A stretch of DNA of 64,000 nucleotides from a phage: sequence record PZ386967.1; one strand, written 5' to 3'. Numbering within the stretch: position 1 is the first letter of the stretch; each line of letters starts with the position of its first letter. Under the pieces are notes generated by a model. The model was not told the origin of the DNA, ran no database searches, and saw only the letters and a list, made by a program, of their open reading frames with translations. Below are positions 3,356-63,033 of this stretch, piece by piece. The translations under genes and the position numbers were made by a program.

Positions 3356-3666
3356 TGGTCGATTATTGGTTGTTGGCGAACTTCCTGACGTTCGCTTTGT
3401 TGTTAGTGGTTGTCTTGGTCTGGGTGAAGTCGTTCTTCACTCTGGTTCATGCGTATGTGTACCAGATCAACTTCTACACGCTGTCCCCACATCGTGACAC
3501 GAACGTTCGTGCCGATCAACAGGCCGAGGCTATCCTCTCATATCAGTTCATCCACATGCGCGATAAAATGATCAAGCGTGTAGTGTTTTCTACAGTGATG
3601 TTGCTGGTTATCATTATGGTGCGTTTCGTACTGACAACCGTGGGGGTGTTCCATGCCGCTGTATGA
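3352..3666 (+). CDS. small membrane protein (hypothetical)
   Basis: Hydrophobic N-terminus (LLANFLTFALLLVVVLVWV) and second hydrophobic stretch; start overlaps upstream stop. Confidence 0.35.
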   Translation: MMVDYWLLANFLTFALLLVVVLVWVKSFFTLVHAYVYQINFYTLSPHRDTNVRADQQAEAILSYQFIHMRDKMIKRVVFSTVMLLVIIMVRFVLTTVGVFHAAV

Positions 3667-3898
3667 TTATCAATGCAAGGGCTGTGGTAACGCGATGACA
3701 CTGCGTAAATCTATTGCAGATCGCCATGAGCCTGAATCCAACCCTTGCACTGAGTGCGGAGGGGAGATTAAAATGATCGTGGGTGCTCCCAAGATTGTCT
3801 CTGGGGTGAAGGGACCACAATCAGCTCCAGACGGCTTCAAGGACGTCTTGCGTACGATAAAGAAGGGTTCGGGTAAGGGGAACACAATCGATGTCTGA
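3653..3898 (+). CDS. FmdB-family zinc-ribbon protein (putative)
   Basis: MPLYDYQCKGCG...CTECGG matches the MPxYxYxCxxCG...CxxCG zinc-ribbon signature. Confidence 0.45.
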   Translation: MPLYDYQCKGCGNAMTLRKSIADRHEPESNPCTECGGEIKMIVGAPKIVSGVKGPQSAPDGFKDVLRTIKKGSGKGNTIDV

Positions 3899-4136
3899 CG
3901 AAAAACAGCCAGCGCTTGTGATGACACCAGAATTATTTTCTGAAATCGTCCTACTACGCGCCGCCCAAACCAAGGATAGTATCCTTGAGACTCTGGCAGC
4001 TGTCTGTGAAGAGAACGACATAGACGAGACCAAAGTCAAAAAGATGATTACAGCACCATTGTTGTCACGACTGACAGCTGAGTGCTCCGATGCGCGCCTG
4101 ATCAAAGACGCGCTAAAGTCTAAGAAATTAGTGTAG
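3891..4136 (+). CDS. hypothetical protein
   Basis: 81-aa ORF in operon context, overlapping upstream stop. Confidence 0.35.
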   Translation: MSDEKQPALVMTPELFSEIVLLRAAQTKDSILETLAAVCEENDIDETKVKKMITAPLLSRLTAECSDARLIKDALKSKKLV

Positions 4137-4407: not shown

Positions 4408-4481
4408 TACCCCGCTTTGTAGCAAACTGAAATACATGTAACAGAATAGCCCTGAGGGGCGGAAACAGAGGAAATTAAGAA

Positions 4482-5492
4482 ATGGGTAATTTATTCGATC
4501 GTCTGAAAGCATCTCGTGGCCAGCAAACTGAAGCAATGCAGGCGCGTCTTGCACAGCAAGGCCAGAAGTCCGGTTTCCAGAAGGATCCTCGCATCTGGAA
4601 ATGGACTTGGAACAAAGATGGTATCTCCGAGAATATCATCCGCTTCCTGCCAGTCCCGCTGGTAGACCTCAAGGCACAGGAAGAAGGGACGATCGATAAA
4701 GATCAGATCCTCACCCCTTGTGCCATGATCATGAAGCATCAGTTCCAAGGACCTGGTGGTTGGTACATTGAGAACTCACCTCAGACGTTCGGCAACGACG
4801 ATCCGGTGCGCGACCATGACCGTCCGCTGTGGGCGCAGCAGAAAGAAACGAACGACGAAAAGCTGAAGGACATCCTGAAGAAACGTCTACCCAACACCGA
4901 TTACTACGCTAACATTCTGGTGATCAAAGATGTCAACGTACCGGAAAACAACGGCAAGGTCTTCCTGTTGAAATTTGGTAACGCCATCAAGAAAATCCTG
5001 GATCAGGCGCAGAATCCTAAGTTCCCAACCGACCCTAAATTCGATCCGTTCGATCTGTGGGAAGGTGCCAACCTGAACCTGAAGCTCTTTGGCGAGCAGA
5101 AGAAGTTTGGGAACTGGGAAGGTCTGGTGGCAAACTTCAGTAAGGTGGTGTGGGAGAACCCTGCCCCGCTGAGTGATGACGAAGCGTATATGGAAGACGT
5201 CTGGTCTCGTGAGCATAGCCTGTTTGAATTCTTCAATCCGGCTAACTTCAAAGACTACGACACCCTGGAAAAGCGCCTGCGCAAAGTTCTGGCAATTCCT
5301 GATGACCAGCCTCTGGTTGAAGGTGGTGCAGCCACGATGGCTCATGCTCCTAGCACCCAGACTACACATCAGCCAACTGCTCAAGACAGCCTGAAACAGC
5401 AACAGGCCGCGCCGTCGCAGGCTCAGACTCAACCGGATGCCAGAAACACGGCTACCATTGATGAATTCGAGCAGTATCTCAAGTCTAACTGA
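4482..5492 (+). CDS. 32: single-stranded DNA-binding protein (T4 gp32 family)
   Basis: IRFLP, YYANILVIKDVNVPENNGKVF and WEGANLNLK match remembered gp32 blocks; GAGGAAA SD; acidic C-terminal tail. Confidence 0.85.
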   Translation: MGNLFDRLKASRGQQTEAMQARLAQQGQKSGFQKDPRIWKWTWNKDGISENIIRFLPVPLVDLKAQEEGTIDKDQILTPCAMIMKHQFQGPGGWYIENSPQTFGNDDPVRDHDRPLWAQQKETNDEKLKDILKKRLPNTDYYANILVIKDVNVPENNGKVFLLKFGNAIKKILDQAQNPKFPTDPKFDPFDLWEGANLNLKLFGEQKKFGNWEGLVANFSKVVWENPAPLSDDEAYMEDVWSREHSLFEFFNPANFKDYDTLEKRLRKVLAIPDDQPLVEGGAATMAHAPSTQTTHQPTAQDSLKQQQAAPSQAQTQPDARNTATIDEFEQYLKSN

Positions 5493-18572: not shown

Positions 18573-19181
18573 ATGTCACTGAAAAACTTACTGAAACGCA
18601 TCTTCACCACTGTTGAAGCTAACGTCACCGCAGGTCTGGATAAACTGACCGACACCGAAAAGCGCCTGAACCTGGCTGCTCGCAAGCTGTCTGACGAAAT
18701 CCGTCGCCTGGAGGAAGCCCGTGTCACCAACGTCCGCAACGGCGTCAAGCTGAAGAAGACCGCAGAACAGAACCTAAGTGAAGCCGCCAAGCGCGAAGAA
18801 GTTCTGAAGGACGCCATCGCTCGTGGTGTCACACCAACCCGCGCCGACGCCCTGATTATTCTGCATCGCCGCCGTATCGGTGAAGCCCTGTTGGCTCAGG
18901 TGAAGGACATCGAAGCAAGCAGCGACAAACTGAACGGTGCGATCATCCAGCTGGGTGACAAACTGGACGAAGTCAAGTCCAATCTCGAGCTGGTTCGTGT
19001 TCAGAAAGAGACGAACGACCTGGGTCTGGTGCTCCCTGAAGATATCGATTATGCCGCTGGTATGACCACCATCGATATCGATGCCATCCTGCGCGAAACC
19101 GAAATCGCTGATTCGAGCTACTCCGCCAACAGCCCGTCGTCTATCGAAGCCGACAACTACCTCGCCAGCCTGAGCAAATAA
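18573..19181 (+). CDS. PspA/IM30-like coiled-coil protein (putative)
   Basis: N-terminal RIFTTVEANVTAGLDKLTDTEKRLNLAARKLSDEI resembles remembered PspA N-terminus ([23 protein letters not shown]...); about 200 aa, heptad-rich. Confidence 0.35.
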   Translation: MSLKNLLKRIFTTVEANVTAGLDKLTDTEKRLNLAARKLSDEIRRLEEARVTNVRNGVKLKKTAEQNLSEAAKREEVLKDAIARGVTPTRADALIILHRRRIGEALLAQVKDIEASSDKLNGAIIQLGDKLDEVKSNLELVRVQKETNDLGLVLPEDIDYAAGMTTIDIDAILRETEIADSSYSANSPSSIEADNYLASLSK

Positions 19182-19195
19182 CATCAGAGGGGCTT

Positions 19196-19756
19196 ATGCC
19201 CCTCTATCACTTCGGGGATCTTATGAACATTATTGATTCTTTCAACATACTCACTGGTGCTACTGCTTTCGTTCTTTTGTGTATTGGCAGTGCCTGGCTG
19301 AGAGGTCGACTGAAGAAACGGGAAGTCTTGAAGCGAGACCGTATTGACATCCACAAAATAATGCTGGATAGAACTTGCAAACATGGCCCCAGCGGTGACT
19401 TCCGTTTGTATTATTTGTCGGATGAAGTCACCCCTTCGGAATTCTTCAATTATGCGATGGCTGGGTTGCGATGGCCGGAGATAAACGGCGTTGTTCAGAA
19501 AACTGATTACGTGTACGTGAATATGGCTTCCCTGAACAAGCACGGGGAACGCGACGATCTGCGGATGTGGTTCTTTGGAGGAGAGGAACAAGAAGAGTTT
19601 GTAAAAGAACTTGCTCTCTTGCTTAACACGTACGAAAAGGCTGGTTGCCCACCACTCGAGGTGGAAGAATCAGTAGAATCTATCGTGGCTCGCGCTCGTG
19701 GTGAAACCGTGGATCTACTGAACAAATACGGCTTTGTCTGGGCGGAGGGTTCATGA
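19196..19756 (+). CDS. membrane-anchored protein (hypothetical)
   Basis: N-terminal TM helix (LTGATAFVLLCIGSAWL); follows the PspA-like gene. Confidence 0.4.
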   Translation: MPLYHFGDLMNIIDSFNILTGATAFVLLCIGSAWLRGRLKKREVLKRDRIDIHKIMLDRTCKHGPSGDFRLYYLSDEVTPSEFFNYAMAGLRWPEINGVVQKTDYVYVNMASLNKHGERDDLRMWFFGGEEQEEFVKELALLLNTYEKAGCPPLEVEESVESIVARARGETVDLLNKYGFVWAEGS

Positions 19757-19861: not shown

Positions 19862-21292
19862 ATGATCCCTATCCTTGAAACAGTCCGCCGACTTCGCGAA
19901 ACCAAAGGCAGCAATGCGAAGAAAGCCGTGCTGACCGAAGCATTCAAGAACAACCCAGACTTGGCAGACTTCCTGCAGTATGTCTATGACCCAATGACGT
20001 CGTTCTATCGGACTGAGTTGAAGCTCAGCGCGTACCCTCGCATGCTCGTCCGTGAGAAGACTGATGACATTAGCGAAGTCTATGGCGTCCTCGACCAGAT
20101 GGCGCAGCGCCTTGTCGGTGGCCAAAAGGCTGATGCCCTGTTGGCCTCTGTCGCCCTGAAGATGGATCCCCAATACCACGAACTCATTCAGATGATCCTA
20201 GACCGTGATATCAAGGCGGGTATCGCTGAGAAGGGCATCAATGCAGCGTTCAAAGCAGCGGGTGGCACAGGCCGACTGATCAACATCCTTCCGTATCATC
20301 GTTATGACAACATGACGATTGACCTGCTGAAGAAGATGGACTTCAAGCGTGGTGTCTACAGCCAGCTGAAGTCAGACGGTATGTTCGCCAACATCATATG
20401 TCGGTACAATAAAGAGCCTGAGATTCGCTCTCGATCCGGTTCCCTTATCGCAGGCGGTTCGGTTGACAACCTGTCACTGGTGTTCAAGGACATCATCTAC
20501 GATGCGGGGATTGGTGAGAGTGTGTTCCATGGTGAACTTCTCGTTGTTGACCTCAAGTCGAATACCATCCTGCCTCGTGCTGTCGGTAACGGTAAACTCA
20601 ACAGCGTGATTCAGACAGGAGAACCCCTAGAAGATCGTTATCGGGTGATCTACCGGGTGTGGGATGTTATCCCGTACGACAACTGGTTCAACGCCCAGCG
20701 CGTGGACACCCCGTATGAAACCCGCTTCGACATGATCATGCAAATGTTTTGTGAAGACGACGGTCTGGTTCAGGTTCAAGAAACCCGTGTTGTTCACTCA
20801 TTTGCCGAAGCCGTCGACCACTTCAAAGACGCGCTGGCTCGCAAAGAAGAAGGCACGATATGTAAGGCCGCAGACATGCCGTGGGAAGATGGTACTTCTT
20901 CTGAAGGTCTGAAGCTGAAGATGGAGGTTGAGTGTGACCTTGAAATCGTGGGCTTCAACGAGGCTGACAAGAAGGGTAAACACGCCAAGACTTTTGGCTC
21001 ACTGATTTGTAAAACTTCCGATGGCCTGCTTGTTGTTGGCGTATCAGGGATCTCAGATGAGCTGAGACGCCATATGTGGGAGAACCAGGGCGATTACATT
21101 GGCAAGATCGCCGCAGTGCTCTCCAATGGCGTACAGGACAAGACAGACGATGCGATGAAGTCTTTGTTCCTACCTCGCCTTGTAGAAGTCCGCATTGACA
21201 AGAAAGTGGCCAACACACTGGATGAAGTCTATGCGATACAGAAAGCGTACATCGAAAACATCGCATTCCTGTTGGAGAAGGGTAATGGGTGA
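19862..21292 (+). CDS. 30: ATP-dependent DNA ligase (T4 gp30-like)
   Basis: Adenylation motif I KxDG (SQLKSDGMF), 476 aa. Confidence 0.8.
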   Translation: MIPILETVRRLRETKGSNAKKAVLTEAFKNNPDLADFLQYVYDPMTSFYRTELKLSAYPRMLVREKTDDISEVYGVLDQMAQRLVGGQKADALLASVALKMDPQYHELIQMILDRDIKAGIAEKGINAAFKAAGGTGRLINILPYHRYDNMTIDLLKKMDFKRGVYSQLKSDGMFANIICRYNKEPEIRSRSGSLIAGGSVDNLSLVFKDIIYDAGIGESVFHGELLVVDLKSNTILPRAVGNGKLNSVIQTGEPLEDRYRVIYRVWDVIPYDNWFNAQRVDTPYETRFDMIMQMFCEDDGLVQVQETRVVHSFAEAVDHFKDALARKEEGTICKAADMPWEDGTSSEGLKLKMEVECDLEIVGFNEADKKGKHAKTFGSLICKTSDGLLVVGVSGISDELRRHMWENQGDYIGKIAAVLSNGVQDKTDDAMKSLFLPRLVEVRIDKKVANTLDEVYAIQKAYIENIAFLLEKGNG

Positions 21293-31633: not shown

Positions 31634-32262
31634 CCCACAACCTCCAGACCCATCAGATCTTCCATGGTCTTCTGAATACGCAGCCAGTCAAGCGCAGCGT
31701 CATAACGAGGGTCATGATAGACCATACCTTCCAGTTCCCACGCCTTGATACCAGCATACCGATCCTGCTGTCCAACACCCTTCAGCCAACTCACGATGTC
31801 GAAGGTGTGGTGGTAGTCCCAAGGCTCGTTGGAGTCCTGCTTACATGTCACCTCAATGATGTGCTGAGCCTTGCGCAGATCAAACAGGTTGCGATCACAC
31901 CAGTCGACCGAGCGCGGGTCTACCCCAAGACGATGACAACCCTTGCGGATTTCATCGGCCAATTGGAAGATAGAGATGTCATCTTCCTTGGGGTACAGAC
32001 TGACTGCGCGAGCCGCATCACACGGGTTACGTTTACCCGCCCCCAACCACCATTCTACCGTCCCAGCGTCCTTCACGCGACCAAGTTCGAGCTGCTCTTT
32101 GACATTCAGCTTAATGAACGTCGTGCGCTCCTCAACCAGCTGCTGAAGAGTATAACGCTTGGTCAGGTCGGCGATGGTGTGCGCCCAAGACAGCATGACT
32201 GCATCATCCCAGCGCCCCAAGGTTTCACTGTCGGCCACAGCCAAAAAATTTGATTTATACAT
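31630..32262 (-). CDS. dexA: DEDD-type 3'-5' exonuclease (T4 DexA-like)
   Basis: Exo I motif AVADSETLG, GTVEWW block and C-terminal HDPRYDAALDWL resemble remembered DexA blocks. Confidence 0.5.
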   Translation of the reverse strand: MYKSNFLAVADSETLGRWDDAVMLSWAHTIADLTKRYTLQQLVEERTTFIKLNVKEQLELGRVKDAGTVEWWLGAGKRNPCDAARAVSLYPKEDDISIFQLADEIRKGCHRLGVDPRSVDWCDRNLFDLRKAQHIIEVTCKQDSNEPWDYHHTFDIVSWLKGVGQQDRYAGIKAWELEGMVYHDPRYDAALDWLRIQKTMEDLMGLEVVG

Positions 32263-32506
32263 GTTTATTCTCCCAACACTTTATTTTGGCTTTTACTGTA
32301 TAATAATTTTCATCAATGAACTTTTTGTTGACGCGCTTAATTTCTATCTCTGGGCAAAGTAACCCTATAGTTTCCCTCAAAATCTGGCTCACCCTGGCCT
32401 GTGAAATACAATAAATTTCTGATACTTCTTTCGAACTAGTTCCAGACATGACAAGTTTTAGAATATTGACCTTTTTATAAAATTCTTGATCAAACGCACA
32501 TATCAT
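32255..32506 (-). CDS. small HTH DNA-binding protein (sigma region-4 / Fis-like)
   Basis: SKEVSEIYCISQARVSQILRE helix-turn-helix. Confidence 0.4.
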   Translation of the reverse strand: MICAFDQEFYKKVNILKLVMSGTSSKEVSEIYCISQARVSQILRETIGLLCPEIEIKRVNKKFIDENYYTVKAKIKCWENKHV

Positions 32507-32509
32507 TAT

Positions 32510-34455: not shown

Positions 34456-35787
34456 TTATAGGCCAAGAGCCTTTTCAAGGTCATCAAGGTCTTCAGTGTA
34501 AAGATCGATGTCCTCTTTCTTACTTAATTCCTTGTGCTGTGCTTCAAGGTTCTCAATCTGCTTGAGTAGGCGCTCACGGGCATCCAGAGTAATAGACGAC
34601 AGAGGCATCTTGAACAACTCGTCAAGATCACCACCAAAGTCCGGGTAGTCCTGCATGAACAGAGACTTCAGCACGTCAATCTTTTGGCGGAGATCAACAC
34701 GCGTCGCCCATTCAATGAACACCGCCCGGTCACCCAGCTTGCGGATCCTGTCTGCCATGTCCTTCAACAGATACTGGCGACGGTCTTCATACCGTGACAG
34801 GCGATAATTGAAGAACGGCAGCAACATGTCCCGCCAACCAGAATAACGATGAATGACCCCGTCTTCATCCCAGGCCGTCCAAACAGGCTTGTTGGCTGAA
34901 TACAACTTGAACATCTGCTCAACCTGATTATCATCCAGCTTGGACAGTTCGCCGCGCTTAAACACAACCGTGATATCCCAGCCATCTTCCGTCGTGTCGT
35001 TGGCGTACTCGGTGAGGATACCTGCCTTGTACAGAGGCAGCAACACCTTGGTCTCATAGGTCTTGGCAAACCAACCCACTGGGACTTCGGTGATATGCAG
35101 GGTCGTGGCATTGACGCGACGGAAGATGCCGCGACTGTATGCTCTTCCTTCCTCAGTATAGCCTGTCTCTCCTTTGAAGCCGTTCCAGTACGGTTTTAAG
35201 TCTTTCGGGTCTTCGCCACGGAGAAGCGCTCTCAGGGCATTCAGCACGGACTTAACGCAATGACACGGGGTGTCGGTGGAATATCCGGTGCCGATACCAT
35301 TGATCCCATTCACCAGGAACATGGGTAGGATGGGCAGAAAGAACTTCGGCTCCAGTCTTTCTTCACCAAGGTAGTTGTATTCCAAAATACCCTCATCCTC
35401 CTTGCGGAAGATCTTGCGGATAACGTCAGATACAGCGACGGATATGTATCGGGCAGATGAAGCATCACGCCCCATGATAGAACCAAACTGGCCATCGCGG
35501 TCAAAGTACGGGATGTTGTTCGTGCCTGGGAACCCCTGAGCCATGTTCACGATAGTGCCGCTCATGTTCTCACCACCAGACTTGTAGTTGGTGCGAGCGG
35601 CGGCGAACATACCAAGGCGGTCAACAATCTCCTCCTTGTTGTACTCAAGAGCAGCGAAAAGGATCTTGCGCTGGCTTGGCTTGAGGCTGTCGATCAGCTG
35701 AGGGATTTGACGGATGCTGTTGACCACAGAAAACTGCTTATGGTCAGTGTTGACAAAGTCCGTTACAGTAATGCTCTTAGCAACCAT
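34456..35787 (-). CDS. 52: DNA topoisomerase II medium subunit (T4 gp52, GyrA-like)
   Basis: LKPSQRKILFAA resembles the GyrA LKPVHRRILYAM block; ORF track start 35868 overlaps gp39-like; ATG at 35787 follows the upstream stop by 2 nt with GAGGA SD. Confidence 0.7.
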   Translation of the reverse strand: MVAKSITVTDFVNTDHKQFSVVNSIRQIPQLIDSLKPSQRKILFAALEYNKEEIVDRLGMFAAARTNYKSGGENMSGTIVNMAQGFPGTNNIPYFDRDGQFGSIMGRDASSARYISVAVSDVIRKIFRKEDEGILEYNYLGEERLEPKFFLPILPMFLVNGINGIGTGYSTDTPCHCVKSVLNALRALLRGEDPKDLKPYWNGFKGETGYTEEGRAYSRGIFRRVNATTLHITEVPVGWFAKTYETKVLLPLYKAGILTEYANDTTEDGWDITVVFKRGELSKLDDNQVEQMFKLYSANKPVWTAWDEDGVIHRYSGWRDMLLPFFNYRLSRYEDRRQYLLKDMADRIRKLGDRAVFIEWATRVDLRQKIDVLKSLFMQDYPDFGGDLDELFKMPLSSITLDARERLLKQIENLEAQHKELSKKEDIDLYTEDLDDLEKALGL

Positions 35788-35788
35788 C

Positions 35789-37698
35789 TTATTCATCCTC
35801 AGTTTCAAACAGGCAAACATCGCTAAACCAGGTTTTACGGTAATCGGCAGCCTCATCACCGAAGCCATTCTTCAGTGACTGTTGGTAGCCATCGTCCAGC
35901 GTGACCGTCGTAGTATACGCATCTAGGTTGTTTAGAATACGTTTGAAGTCTTCAGTGCTGTTACCACCAAGACCTTTCAGATATTTCTTCTTCGTGATCT
36001 TCTTGGCATCAGGCGTCTTCAGGAACTCCTCATACTCGGCGTTGTTCATGAACTCATGCATCACCTTACCACACCACACACGCATGTAAGGGGTGCGCAG
36101 GAGCTTCAGCCTGCCCTGACGGACATACTCCGGCCAGTAGGTGCAATACAGGGTGATCAACAACCCACGGATGTGGATGCCGTCATCGTCCGCATCGGTA
36201 GCCACAACAGTCTGTGGGTAACGGGTGATATCAAGGGGCTGGCCTGGCACTGCGCCGCCATGGATCGTACACAGGTTCTTGAACTCTTCATTGTTCATCA
36301 CCTTTGAGCGCGGGGCGTTCAGGCAGTTGATGAACTTACCACGAAGCGGGAACAACCCGATCTTCTTGGTGTCGCGGGCGTTCAGGATAGGATTGGAGGC
36401 ACTATCACCCTCTGTCAGCAACAGGGAGCATCCGCTGCGGTCACCACGGGCGGTCGCCGGGTAATACTTCTCAATCTCACGATAATCCCGCTTGCTGATG
36501 TCCTTCTTGGCCTTTTCAAACTCAGCATCATCCTGCTCATTGCGCAGGGAAGCCAGTTCTTTGCTCAGACCAGCTGTAACGAACTCAAGCGCCTTGCGGA
36601 TCAGTTTATCACTGGGCTTGTACGACGTACCGAACTGGCTGACAGGAGTGGTCATGCGCTCCTTGGTCTGGCTGTCAAAGCGCGGGTTGTTGATGTCGGC
36701 AGCGATGAACAAGGACATGTGGTTCTTGATCATTGCTGGCTTCAGTTCGGTCTTGAACTTCTTCACCAGCTGGGGACGAATCGCTGCCACGATCTGGTCA
36801 GCAACATAATCAACGTGAGGACCACCGATGTGGGTGGCAATAGAGTTCACGTATGATGCGTGCATGAACGTACCGGATGAAGGGGCTACAGCAACAGACC
36901 AATCCCCGGTTTCGTCAACAGCCGAACCAGCATGGAAGTAATCAACGAAGTGGCCAAAGCGGTCAATCCGGATTTGCTTCCCGTTGAGAACAATCTTCAG
37001 GCGCGGGTTACACGCAGCCACTTCAAACGCGCGGCGATAGATCATCAGCAGGTTGTTCTGGTCAAGTCCTTTGACGCCCAGACGAGCATAGTCAGGGATC
37101 CAGGCGATGGATGTGCCAGGACTGTTCACGTTGCTGATGACTGGGTTAGATTTCTTGCTCATGTTGTCTTCAAACGTCTGAGTATAAGACTTCTTGCCGT
37201 CATTAGTCGTGACGCGGAACCATTTGGAGAACACGTTGACGAGGGACGCCCCTTCGCCATTCTGACCACCGGACTTCTGGTTGTTGTACTCTTCGTCTTC
37301 GTCGTTGAAGTTCGATCCCGCATATAGAGAGCCGAACAACATTTCAGGAAGCCACTCGTTGGTGACGCCATGCTTGACCACAGGGATACCCCCGTTGTCA
37401 GCAACGATGATTTGACCGTTCATCGGGGAAACTGTGACGGTGATTTCCGTCAGGGATTTGCCCTCAGGGGTCTTGCTGTGTCAACACAGTTGGTGATGAT
37501 TTCATCAAACTGTTTGATCAGCGCGGGGGAGTACTCAAAGTTGTCACGGAAGATGACTTTGTCCTTAGTTGGGTCATACACCCACACCGTCCCCACAGAC
37601 GAACGAATACTGCCCAGATGACGCTCTGGGCGGAGTAGGATATGCTCAACGTGAGTGAGCTTCTTGTACTTGCGTTCAATATCAATTTTGTTGGACAT
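35789..37698 (-). CDS. 39: DNA topoisomerase II large subunit (T4 gp39, GyrB-like ATPase + TOPRIM), reading frame interrupted near 37450-37470
   Basis: N-terminal fragment 37450..37698 carries the GHKL N-box context (ITNCVD); 35789..37423 carries IVADNGGIP, GSNFND and TOPRIM LLLTEGDSA. The frames are joined by a single-base shift at a C4 run (plus GGGG at about 37467-37470). Confidence 0.7.
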
Positions 37699-39649: not shown

Positions 39650-39722
39650 TATACACCAAATGCTGGAAATGAAAAAGAGGCCGGAGCCTCTTTTGTTAAC
39701 CCATGATCATCGCGTTCATGGC

Positions 39723-46279: not shown

Positions 46280-46627
46280 TCAATCTTCGGTGGCAAATCG
46301 CGCCTGGAAGTCGAATGTTGGGCGCTGGGCACCAGGTTCCAACTTCTCTTCCAGATAGCCGATGATGGTGCGGGTGACCGACACAGGCTCTTTGCGTGGG
46401 TTGACTGGAGTAGCCAGCGCGATGATAGAGGACTGCTGCTCTTCTACACGCGTGTATTCCACATTGAAGTGATAGCGAGAACCAAAGGCCGCCACTTCGA
46501 CTTCAACGATTTGTAGATCTTTCAGGTCAGTGCTGCTCAGGGTTCCCACGTTCAACTGTGAGCGCAGGTGCTCAACAATGTTGGAGTACACATACTGTGG
46601 GGTGATCAGCTGTTCAATAGAACTCAT
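46280..46627 (-). CDS. hypothetical protein
   Basis: 115-aa ORF. Confidence 0.35.
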   Translation of the reverse strand: MSSIEQLITPQYVYSNIVEHLRSQLNVGTLSSTDLKDLQIVEVEVAAFGSRYHFNVEYTRVEEQQSSIIALATPVNPRKEPVSVTRTIIGYLEEKLEPGAQRPTFDFQARFATED

Positions 46628-58581: not shown

Positions 58582-59139
58582 ATGGCAATCGAAATTATCG
58601 CTCAATCCAAATCTGGTAAAACTGTAATGTACGGCACTGAAGAAGGCCGCGCAATCACCACTCTGGGCACAATTGACGGTTCCAACCCAGTGAAAGGCGG
58701 TCGCTACCTGGTTGAATACGGTTCACACCTGCTGATGGTAAGCAAAGTCGATGGTCGTGAAATCATGATTCCCCGCAAAGAGTACTTCGACTCGCGCATT
58801 GAAGCCATGAACTTCTTCCTTTTCCAGGAACGTCACGAACTGTTCGTTGAAGCGAAAGACGCAGGCCTGGACGATGCGACTGCCGAACTGATCGCTGAAG
58901 GTAAAATGACTCTTGAGGCTGCTCTGGGTGACATGGATTGCGATGCTGAAGCCCATTACATCGAATATTCCGCTTATCAGAATGAATGCGAAGACGATCC
59001 TGAAGATGACGGCTTCGACCCTGACCTTCACGGTGGCGAGGATGACAACACTCCTTCCCTGGAAGTGATCATGGCAGGCGGTCAGGCCGCTTGGGAGTGG
59101 CAGAACGAAAAGAACGCCTGGCTGGATTCCCACCTTTAA
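58582..59139 (+). CDS. hypothetical acidic protein
   Basis: ORF track 58495..59139; ATG at 58582 follows AGAAGGAAATACATC; highly acidic C-terminus. Confidence 0.45.
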   Translation: MAIEIIAQSKSGKTVMYGTEEGRAITTLGTIDGSNPVKGGRYLVEYGSHLLMVSKVDGREIMIPRKEYFDSRIEAMNFFLFQERHELFVEAKDAGLDDATAELIAEGKMTLEAALGDMDCDAEAHYIEYSAYQNECEDDPEDDGFDPDLHGGEDDNTPSLEVIMAGGQAAWEWQNEKNAWLDSHL

Positions 59140-59156
59140 TGTGAAGAAATAAAGAA

Positions 59157-59182
59157 AGGGGCTTAACGCCCCTTTTCTTATT
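59157..59182. terminator. bidirectional terminator between convergent genes
   Basis: AGGGGC-TTAA-GCCCCT with T-runs on both strands. Confidence 0.6.
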
Positions 59183-62058: not shown

Positions 62059-62147
62059 TTGGCGGAAGGTGAAGGATTCGAACCTTCGGGGGCTAAAAGC
62101 CCCACTCGATTAGCAGTCGAGTCCCTTAAACCTCTCGGGCAACCTTC
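62059..62147 (-). tRNA. tRNA-Ser (anticodon GCU), class II with long variable arm
   Basis: Hand-folded: acceptor GGAAGGT/ACCTTCC, anticodon stem CTCGA/TCGAG with loop CTGCTAA, variable hairpin GGGGC-TTTTA-GCCCC, T-arm GAAGG-TTCGAAT-CCTTC, discriminator G, encoded CCA. Confidence 0.8.
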
Positions 62148-62368
62148 CAATTTGGACGGGCTTCACACCCGATTGAGCATTTGATCTGCTGTAGCCCAAC
62201 TCCCCGCGCTTCTCAGCGCCGATTGGTTAACTGGCGACCAGTGCCTTCTGGTTCGATCTCCTGGAACTTTACAGGCTTTGCGCCCGACCATTTCTGGAAG
62301 TTGGGGCATCGTTTCCGATGTGGAGTCACCCCATTTTATACACAGCTGGCTGCAACGCTTACTGTGTT

Positions 62369-62452
62369 TGGTGTGAGTGGATGGATTCGAACCACCGCGC
62401 TGTTACGGGGAGATTTACAGTCTCCTGCATTCGACCGCTCTGCCACACTCAC
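62369..62452 (-). tRNA. tRNA-Tyr (anticodon GUA)
   Basis: Acceptor GTGAGTG/CACTCAC, anticodon stem GGAGA/TCTCC loop CTGTAAA, long variable arm, T-loop TTCGAAT, discriminator A, CCA. Confidence 0.75.
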
Positions 62453-62709
62453 ATTTGGTCTGCCGCTGCGTGCTGGGCCACGCTCGAGGACATCGGCCAT
62501 CCTTCCTCAGCTAATCCACGCAGCGGTAGATTTGTATCAGAGTGTCCGGTGTAGCAACCCGTGAGGTGCGCACTACTGTAGCCTCTACACTCTGAATTTG
62601 GTGGGCGTTACTATCGTCGTCTTCGGATTCCGTTCGGCTATTGGACAGAGGCTTGGAGCTTGTCGGTCGCGTACTTTATGCCTATTCACTTTCGTTCACA
62701 CCCATTGTC

Positions 62710-62785
62710 TGGCGACGATGGCAGGACTTGAACCTGCGACATACGGTTTAACAGACCGCCGTTCTACCGACTGAACTACATCGTC
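62710..62785 (-). tRNA. tRNA-Asn (anticodon GUU)
   Basis: Acceptor GACGATG/CATCGTC, D-arm GTTC-AGTCGGTA-GAAC, anticodon loop CTGTTAA, T-arm GCAGG-TTCAAGT-CCTGC, discriminator G, CCA. Confidence 0.85.
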
Positions 62786-62794
62786 TTGCAAATC

Positions 62795-62819
62795 ACTATA
62801 CCATATAAAGTTTATTGAA
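62795..62819 (-). promoter_or_regulatory. TTCAAT-box / TATAGT promoter positioned to start transcription just upstream of tRNA-Asn
   Basis: Minus TTCAAT 62819-62814, 13-nt spacer, TATAGT 62800-62795, 9 nt before the mature tRNA 5' end. Confidence 0.45.
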
Positions 62820-62956
62820 CAAACATTTATTTTACAACAAACTGTATTGGCGGGGTCTGAGGCTTTTCACCTCACCTGCTGGGTTTGGCCGCCCAGCCGT
62901 TCTCTATGAGGATTCACTGTCCGGACAGCTATCCATTAAACTATCGCCCCTCAATA

Positions 62957-63033
62957 TGGTGATCCTGATTGGGTTTGAACCAATGACCAATGAATTATGA
63001 GTTCACTGCTCTAACCGACTGAGCTACAGGACC
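62957..63033 (-). tRNA. tRNA with CAU anticodon (elongator Met or Ile2-lysidine type)
   Basis: Acceptor GGTCCTG/CAGGATC (one G-U), D-arm GCTC-AGTCGGTTA-GAGC, anticodon loop CTCATAA, T-arm ATTGG-TTCAAAC-CCAAT, discriminator A, CCA; no initiator-specific features. Confidence 0.75.

Follow-up and report, generated by a model that had tools for sequence, protein, structure and literature searches.

An apparently private one-base deletion outside any homopolymer interrupts the topoisomerase II large-subunit gene in an Ackermannviridae phage sequence

The DNA analysed here is a 64,000-nt stretch, record PZ386967.1 (hereafter the window, in whose coordinates all positions are given). Its minus strand carries two open reading frames (ORFs) that are two frames of one gene, the large subunit of a gp39/GyrB-type topoisomerase II. 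The first ORF (37450..37698, minus strand) encodes an 82-aa N-terminal fragment, and the second (35789..37423, minus strand) encodes 544 aa from its first ATG at 37423, which corresponds to Met93 of the intact protein. The rest of the gene, residues 74–636, occupies 35789..37480 in the -1 frame, which is open from 37480 on. The initial annotation had described a gp39/GyrB-type subunit gene that is split over two frames by a single missing base, and the ORF listing, the translations and tblastn bear this out. With the LHE287 protein as query, tblastn matches residues 1–76 in frame -2 and residues 74–636 in frame -1, the latter at 100% identity. Residues 1–73 of the 82-aa ORF are authentic and include the GHKL N-box (E-I-I-T-N-C-V-D); residues 74–82 (TARPLRANP) are out-of-frame read-through that ends at the TGA at 37452–37450. 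In translation, the frame of the 82-aa ORF reads ...EIITNCVDTARPLRANP* and the second frame reads ...HSKTPEGKSLTEITVTVSPMNGQIIVADNGGIP. Past the break, residues 74–92 of the normal protein include TPEGK and SLTEITVTVSPMNGQ.

When the missing C is put back, the large-subunit gene is 1911 nt long and encodes 636 aa. The repaired protein matches PF00204 (DNA_gyraseB, 1.8e-17), PF01751 (Toprim, 2.6e-05) and PF16898 (TOPRIM_C, 7.1e-12) above the Pfam threshold, and HATPase_c with 23.3 bits, slightly below the 26.4-bit cut-off. The 544-aa ORF alone keeps the DNA_gyraseB, Toprim and TOPRIM_C matches and loses that to HATPase_c. A phmmer search against the PDB aligns residues 4–627 of the repaired protein with residues 27–667 of human Topo II-alpha (E = 5.9e-97), in which EIITNCVD is paired with EILVNAAD and ADNGGIP with NNGKGIP; the phage enzymes of the T4/T6 topoisomerase II study (8ylu, 8yo3) are also matched, and these alignments, like that with the human enzyme, run from end to end. 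The break falls right after the N-box and ahead of the G1 box (DNGGIP). The locus thus has what defines the B-type part of a type IIA topoisomerase, namely a GHKL ATPase with N-box and G1 box, the transducer and TOPRIM regions, and an adjacent A-type gene. The coding sequence lies in two frames in the window, whereas the relatives all have one uninterrupted reading frame.

The adjacent gene (34459..35787, minus strand) encodes the 443-aa gp52/GyrA-type medium subunit and is intact. It matches PF00521 (E = 1e-65), aligns over its full length with the LHE287 protein in tblastn (99.1%) and begins one base past the large-subunit stop codon. Because the repaired 636-aa large subunit is followed by a gp52/GyrA-type gene, the enzyme is of the two-subunit T2/T6 type rather than the three-subunit T4 type. 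The mechanically called medium-subunit ORF (34456–35868, minus strand, 470 aa) starts too early and shares 80 nt with the large-subunit gene; homology places the true start at the ATG at 35787, which gives 443 aa. AV101 has an extra 148-aa CDS (4463–4909) exactly between the large- and medium-subunit genes, which has no Pfam match. For PH4 and PC3, the features annotated under the 25-kb match include an 'HNH homing endonuclease domain protein'. A mobile gene at the subunit junction would echo T4 mobA/gene 60.

The position of the lesion was determined by aligning the junction with four relatives of at least 99% identity and with PhaxI (93%), and once more with two IMG/VR contigs included. The sole length difference is a missing C at 37481/37480. 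On the minus strand, the codon pair GAC-CAC (Asp73-His74) of the relatives is reduced to GACAC in the window, so that GTT GAC CAC AGC (V D H S) in the relatives stands against GTTGACACAGC at the same site, and the longer stretch GTT GAC CAC AGC AAG ACC (V D H S K T) against GTTGACACAGCAAGACC. A blastn indel census independently places a 1-nt deletion at window position 37480. The one-base deletion at 37480..37481 (minus strand) therefore removes a base from a CC dinucleotide, not from a homopolymer, and lies ten bases upstream of a C4 run, at the extreme end of the interval that the initial annotation had given (37440–37480).

That run, CCCC at 37467..37470 (minus strand), was where the lesion had originally been placed. 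The run is likewise CCCC in the intact genes of fGh-Ecl02, YX22, AV101 and LHE287, and PhaxI and one IMG/VR contig read CCTC at the same position. Its length is unchanged in intact relatives, which rules out slippage in the C4 run as the lesion and shows the first placement to be off by ten bases. The reasoning that one C added to the CCCC run restores the frame was valid as arithmetic. The two frame stops are a TGA at 37483–37481 in the -1 frame and a TGA at 37452–37450 in the 0 frame; a one-base insertion anywhere in the 28-nt stretch 37480..37453 therefore fuses both ORFs, and the run is one of 28 equivalent positions. Frame arithmetic alone cannot place such a lesion, since any of the 28 insertion sites restores the ORF. 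The restored peptide, aligned with the relatives, reads ...NCVDHSKTPEGKSLTEITV..., or in longer form ...NCVDHSKTPEGKSL..., and the version given previously, ...NCVDTARPPEGKSL..., is wrong at four residues.

The window phage belongs to the Ackermannviridae. Its closest records are the Escherichia coli and Enterobacter phages LHE287, AV101, YX22, fGh-Ecl02, ZQ1 and A221, which share 96–97.6% identity over 25 kb and 99.2–99.6% over the 501 nt around the lesion. With this 501-nt query, all the 40 best megablast matches cover 502 nt. For a 161-nt blastn query, 60 records were picked at even steps down the ranking of 282 Ackermannviridae records, covering phages of Salmonella, Escherichia, Shigella, Dickeya, Erwinia, Serratia, Klebsiella, Enterobacter and Aeromonas, and every one of them (60/60) has a span exactly one base longer than the query. 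The annotated large-subunit CDS is single in five of five relatives (1911 nt in four, 1914 nt in PhaxI). Exact-pattern scans of IMG/VR, a metagenome collection and the GTDB genome collection returned no copy of the deletion allele; the intact allele was found by the same kind of scan in eight IMG/VR contigs. Exact-protein look-up of the 82-aa and 544-aa fragments returned no record of either, and a literature search for a frameshift in an Ackermannviridae topoisomerase gave one paper, on Pseudomonas phage PaBG, whose title and abstract are not about this gene. On the records covered by these searches, the deletion is private to this sequence.

The repaired protein also indicates the age of the lesion. 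It does not differ by a single amino acid from that of fGh-Ecl02 or LHE287, from which the gene differs by 23 and 18 nt, respectively, all silent; the comparison with YX22 gives one amino-acid difference and 10 nt differences. The absence of amino-acid changes against 18–23 silent differences rules out a long-standing pseudogene. Judged from this pattern of substitutions, the deletion is very young, and strict purifying selection has acted on the gene essentially up to now.

We assessed the quality of the window by translating the 93 annotated LHE287 CDSs and mapping them by tblastn. Among the 88 that map, the topoisomerase large subunit is the only one to change frame, and internal stops are absent from all of them. 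An indel census against LHE287 gives 42 indels, and apart from the topoisomerase lesion, all those not divisible by three lie between genes, lie at a gene end or are compensated a few tens of bases away (for example, the sets at 46390–46419 and 54022/54051). The window contains 521 homopolymer runs of at least four bases (441 runs of 4, 79 of 5 and one of 6), and this census shows a frame-breaking indel in none of them. A generally error-rich assembly is ruled out, as neither the tblastn comparison nor the census reveals another broken gene. The initial annotation had favoured a homopolymer sequencing error as the most economical explanation, which does not hold: the base is lost from a 2-mer, and the mark of a homopolymer-length error, an indel in a run that differs in length from that of the relatives, is not found here. 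A lone 2-mer deletion in a window with clean runs is thus poorly described as a platform-typical homopolymer error.

The comparison with LHE287 also brings out several other differences. Two ORFs at 18573–19756 (plus strand), absent from LHE287, lie between the DNA ligase gene (19862–21292) and its upstream neighbour; one encodes 202 aa matching the PspA/IM30 family (E = 4.9e-11) and the other 186 aa without a Pfam match. It is unusual for a phage to carry a PspA-like protein in a variable slot. At 32262–32508, about 250 nt between the Tk.4-like and DexA-like genes are unaligned to LHE287, in which the two genes abut. The window has a 33-nt insertion at 39693 and, within the SSB gene, a 12-nt deletion of one GACTCAGACTCA repeat unit at 5432. 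Conversely, a 183-aa hypothetical CDS of LHE287 (3473–4024) has no counterpart in the window (59136–59181). Apart from these differences, the window has a cluster of four tRNA genes (Ser-GCT, Tyr-GTA, Asn-GTT and Met-CAT) in an ORF-poor stretch at 62060–63033 (minus strand).

The deletion lies within an inverted repeat that it has made perfect. The minus-strand sequence of the intact relatives is CTGTGT-TG-AC[C]ACAG; one arm holds an extra base, and perfect arms reach at most 5 bp, with a 5-nt spacer between them. Loss of the bracketed C yields the perfect repeat CTGTGT-CA-ACACAG on the plus strand (37476..37489), with 6-bp arms and a 2-nt spacer, and the site also appears as a 5-bp hairpin in the RNA fold. 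The repaired window allows 48,229 distinct single-base deletions, and we went through all of them: 1.7% create an inverted repeat that is longer than before and has arms of at least 6 bp, and 2.5% fall inside any repeat with such arms. This corresponds to p ~0.02 in a test that was devised after the hairpin had been seen. Templated frameshifts at quasi-palindromes (the Ripley model), reportedly first described for T4 rII, are expected to perfect imperfect inverted repeats, and hairpin contexts may also provoke sequencing artefacts. The creation of a perfect repeat suggests, as mild support, a genuine templated mutation.

Taken together, the lesion is best read as a non-programmed loss of one base in an otherwise ordinary 636-aa gp39-type gene, and we put the probability that it is a genuine, very recent frameshift in the phage stock at roughly one half. 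A genuine mutation and a sequencing error are about equally probable, with a slight lean to the former because the lesion avoids homopolymers, the rest of the window is clean and a quasi-palindrome is perfected. If the phage DNA itself has the deletion, and not just the assembly, the C may have been lost by templated or slipped replication at the quasi-palindrome. Translation from the normal start would then stop after 82 aa, and the product would keep the N-box and lack the G1 and G2 ATP-binding boxes, the transducer and the TOPRIM domain. No Shine-Dalgarno sequence precedes the ATG at 37423, and this first ATG of the 544-aa frame corresponds to Met93; little or no phage topoisomerase activity would therefore remain. 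Such a phage would probably lean on the type II topoisomerases of its host, as T4 gene 39 amber mutants do. The T4 39am single mutant is viable and shows a longer eclipse period and a smaller burst (PMC4396842). By analogy with these 'DNA delay' mutants, a null allele is likely to be tolerable. Against a genuine mutation, topoisomerase II is intact in every sampled family member, so a null allele should be costly.

Nearly as probable, at somewhat less than an even chance, is an error of sequencing, assembly or consensus calling, in which case the phage really has GAC-CAC and a normal 636-aa subunit, and the base is missing only from the deposited sequence. The privacy of the allele to that sequence and the identity of the repaired protein to those of two relatives fit an artefact as well as they fit a very recent mutation, and the conservation of the enzyme throughout the Ackermannviridae points the same way. 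An isolated consensus error would also fit, and some sequencing chemistries can be disturbed by small hairpin-forming inverted repeats such as the one at this site. Against an error stand the location of the lesion outside homopolymers, with the nearby C4 and C5 runs as undisturbed as the other runs of the window, and the intact frames of all the other mapped genes, which are not those of an error-rich assembly. With short reads at normal depth, a 2-mer seldom loses a base in the consensus.

Readings in which the interruption is bypassed during expression, or in which the gene works in two pieces, are improbable even when taken together. The initial annotation had preferred a mundane cause over recoding and had suggested a comparison with close relatives as the check. 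The relatives have an intact gene without a slippery context, which upholds that preference and effectively refutes programmed recoding.

Programmed -1 ribosomal frameshifting within 37480..37453 could in principle yield the full-length subunit, since the frame is restored by a -1 shift at any point of the 28-nt overlap, and a 6-bp hairpin (UGACGG/CCGUCA) stands at the 0-frame stop. However, the interruption is absent from all the 60 sampled records, and the flanks are identical in uninterrupted relatives of at least 99% identity, so that nothing has evolved here as a signal. No X_XXY_YYZ slippery heptamer occurs anywhere in the 82-aa ORF, and the RNA fold of the region, which includes the 6-bp hairpin at the stop codon, is unremarkable (z = -1.25; 22 of 200 shuffles fold at least as well). 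The lack of a heptamer, the ordinary fold and the unconserved interruption rule out a programmed shift for practical purposes, and we regard it as very improbable.

A functional split is no more probable. The 82-aa and 544-aa chains would be made separately and assemble into an active enzyme, just as T4 gp39 and gp60 do; the B-part of the T4 type II topoisomerase works as two chains (PMC11461880). With only 26 nt between the 0-frame stop and the ATG that follows it, some re-initiation is conceivable, but the ATG lacks the Shine-Dalgarno sequence noted above and residues 74–92 would be missing from both chains. Moreover, the GHKL fold is severed between its N-box and G1 box, the 544-aa fragment has lost the HATPase_c match, and no relative is split. 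An equally slim chance is given to a real deletion from which some full-length or nearly full-length topoisomerase still arises, either by low-level unprogrammed -1 slippage or by a CCC-to-CCG hop over the TGA. If true, this would be an accidental, newborn recoding in the enzyme family of the T4 gene 60 bypass.

The least probable reading is a bypass in the style of T4 gene 60, in which peptidyl-tRNA-Pro would leave CCC (37455–37453), land on CCG (37426–37424) and resume at the ATG at 37423. In its favour, the putative take-off codon is immediately followed by the stop codon TGA, a synonymous codon for Pro occurs in the right frame 26 nt further on, and the hairpin with its 6-bp stem starts at the stop codon. 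Because the same bases are present in uninterrupted relatives, this resemblance in stop and stem is probably coincidental. The take-off and landing codons are not identical. Far from being an inserted element, the 26-nt 'gap' consists of normal coding sequence, which all relatives read in frame. In the product of such a hop, nine unrelated residues would stand in place of 19 conserved ones (74–92) inside the ATPase fold. In T4, the split and its 50-nt bypass form a mobile cassette in the TOPRIM region, associated with mobA (PMC11461880, citing Bonocora et al. 2011). The T4 site is about 400 codons away from the break in the window, which follows residue 73 in the ATPase N-box, so the analogy drawn in the initial annotation has no positional basis. 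Anatomy and the comparison with relatives lead us to reject both such a hop and the functional split. Transcriptional slippage is dismissed likewise, since the longest run in the overlap is the C4 run and a run of that length is far too short for it.

The biological weight of the finding is small, and neither of the two leading explanations, a genuine mutation or an artefact, offers a new recoding mechanism. Should the deletion be an artefact, one base of the record would have to be corrected and the gene annotated as a single 636-aa topoisomerase II large subunit. If it is genuine, the stock would represent an Ackermannviridae phage that naturally lacks topoisomerase function and would be of modest use in asking whether such phages, like T4, can replicate on host gyrase or topoisomerase IV alone, and the lesion would be a tidy example of a quasi-palindrome frameshift.

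Among known systems, the T4 gene 60 bypass resembles the locus in that it concerns a topoisomerase gene with a stop after a codon whose synonym lies downstream in frame; it differs in that the window has an unmatched codon pair, no inserted gap, an unconserved interruption in another domain and flanks identical to those of uninterrupted relatives. The T4 gene 39 amber mutants lose the large topoisomerase subunit through premature termination, as the window phage would if the deletion is genuine, but they belong to another phage family. As in quasi-palindrome frameshift mutations, a single-base deletion here makes an imperfect inverted repeat perfect, although the arms are short (6 bp) and a single event was scored after the fact. 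The T2/T6-type fused gp39, represented by the Ackermannviridae orthologues of fGh-Ecl02 (USL85960.1) and LHE287 (XAN60175.1), shares the same 636 aa, the same domains and a gp52/GyrA-type gene directly after, and the window differs from it in the interruption of the ORF after codon 73 by the one-base deletion.
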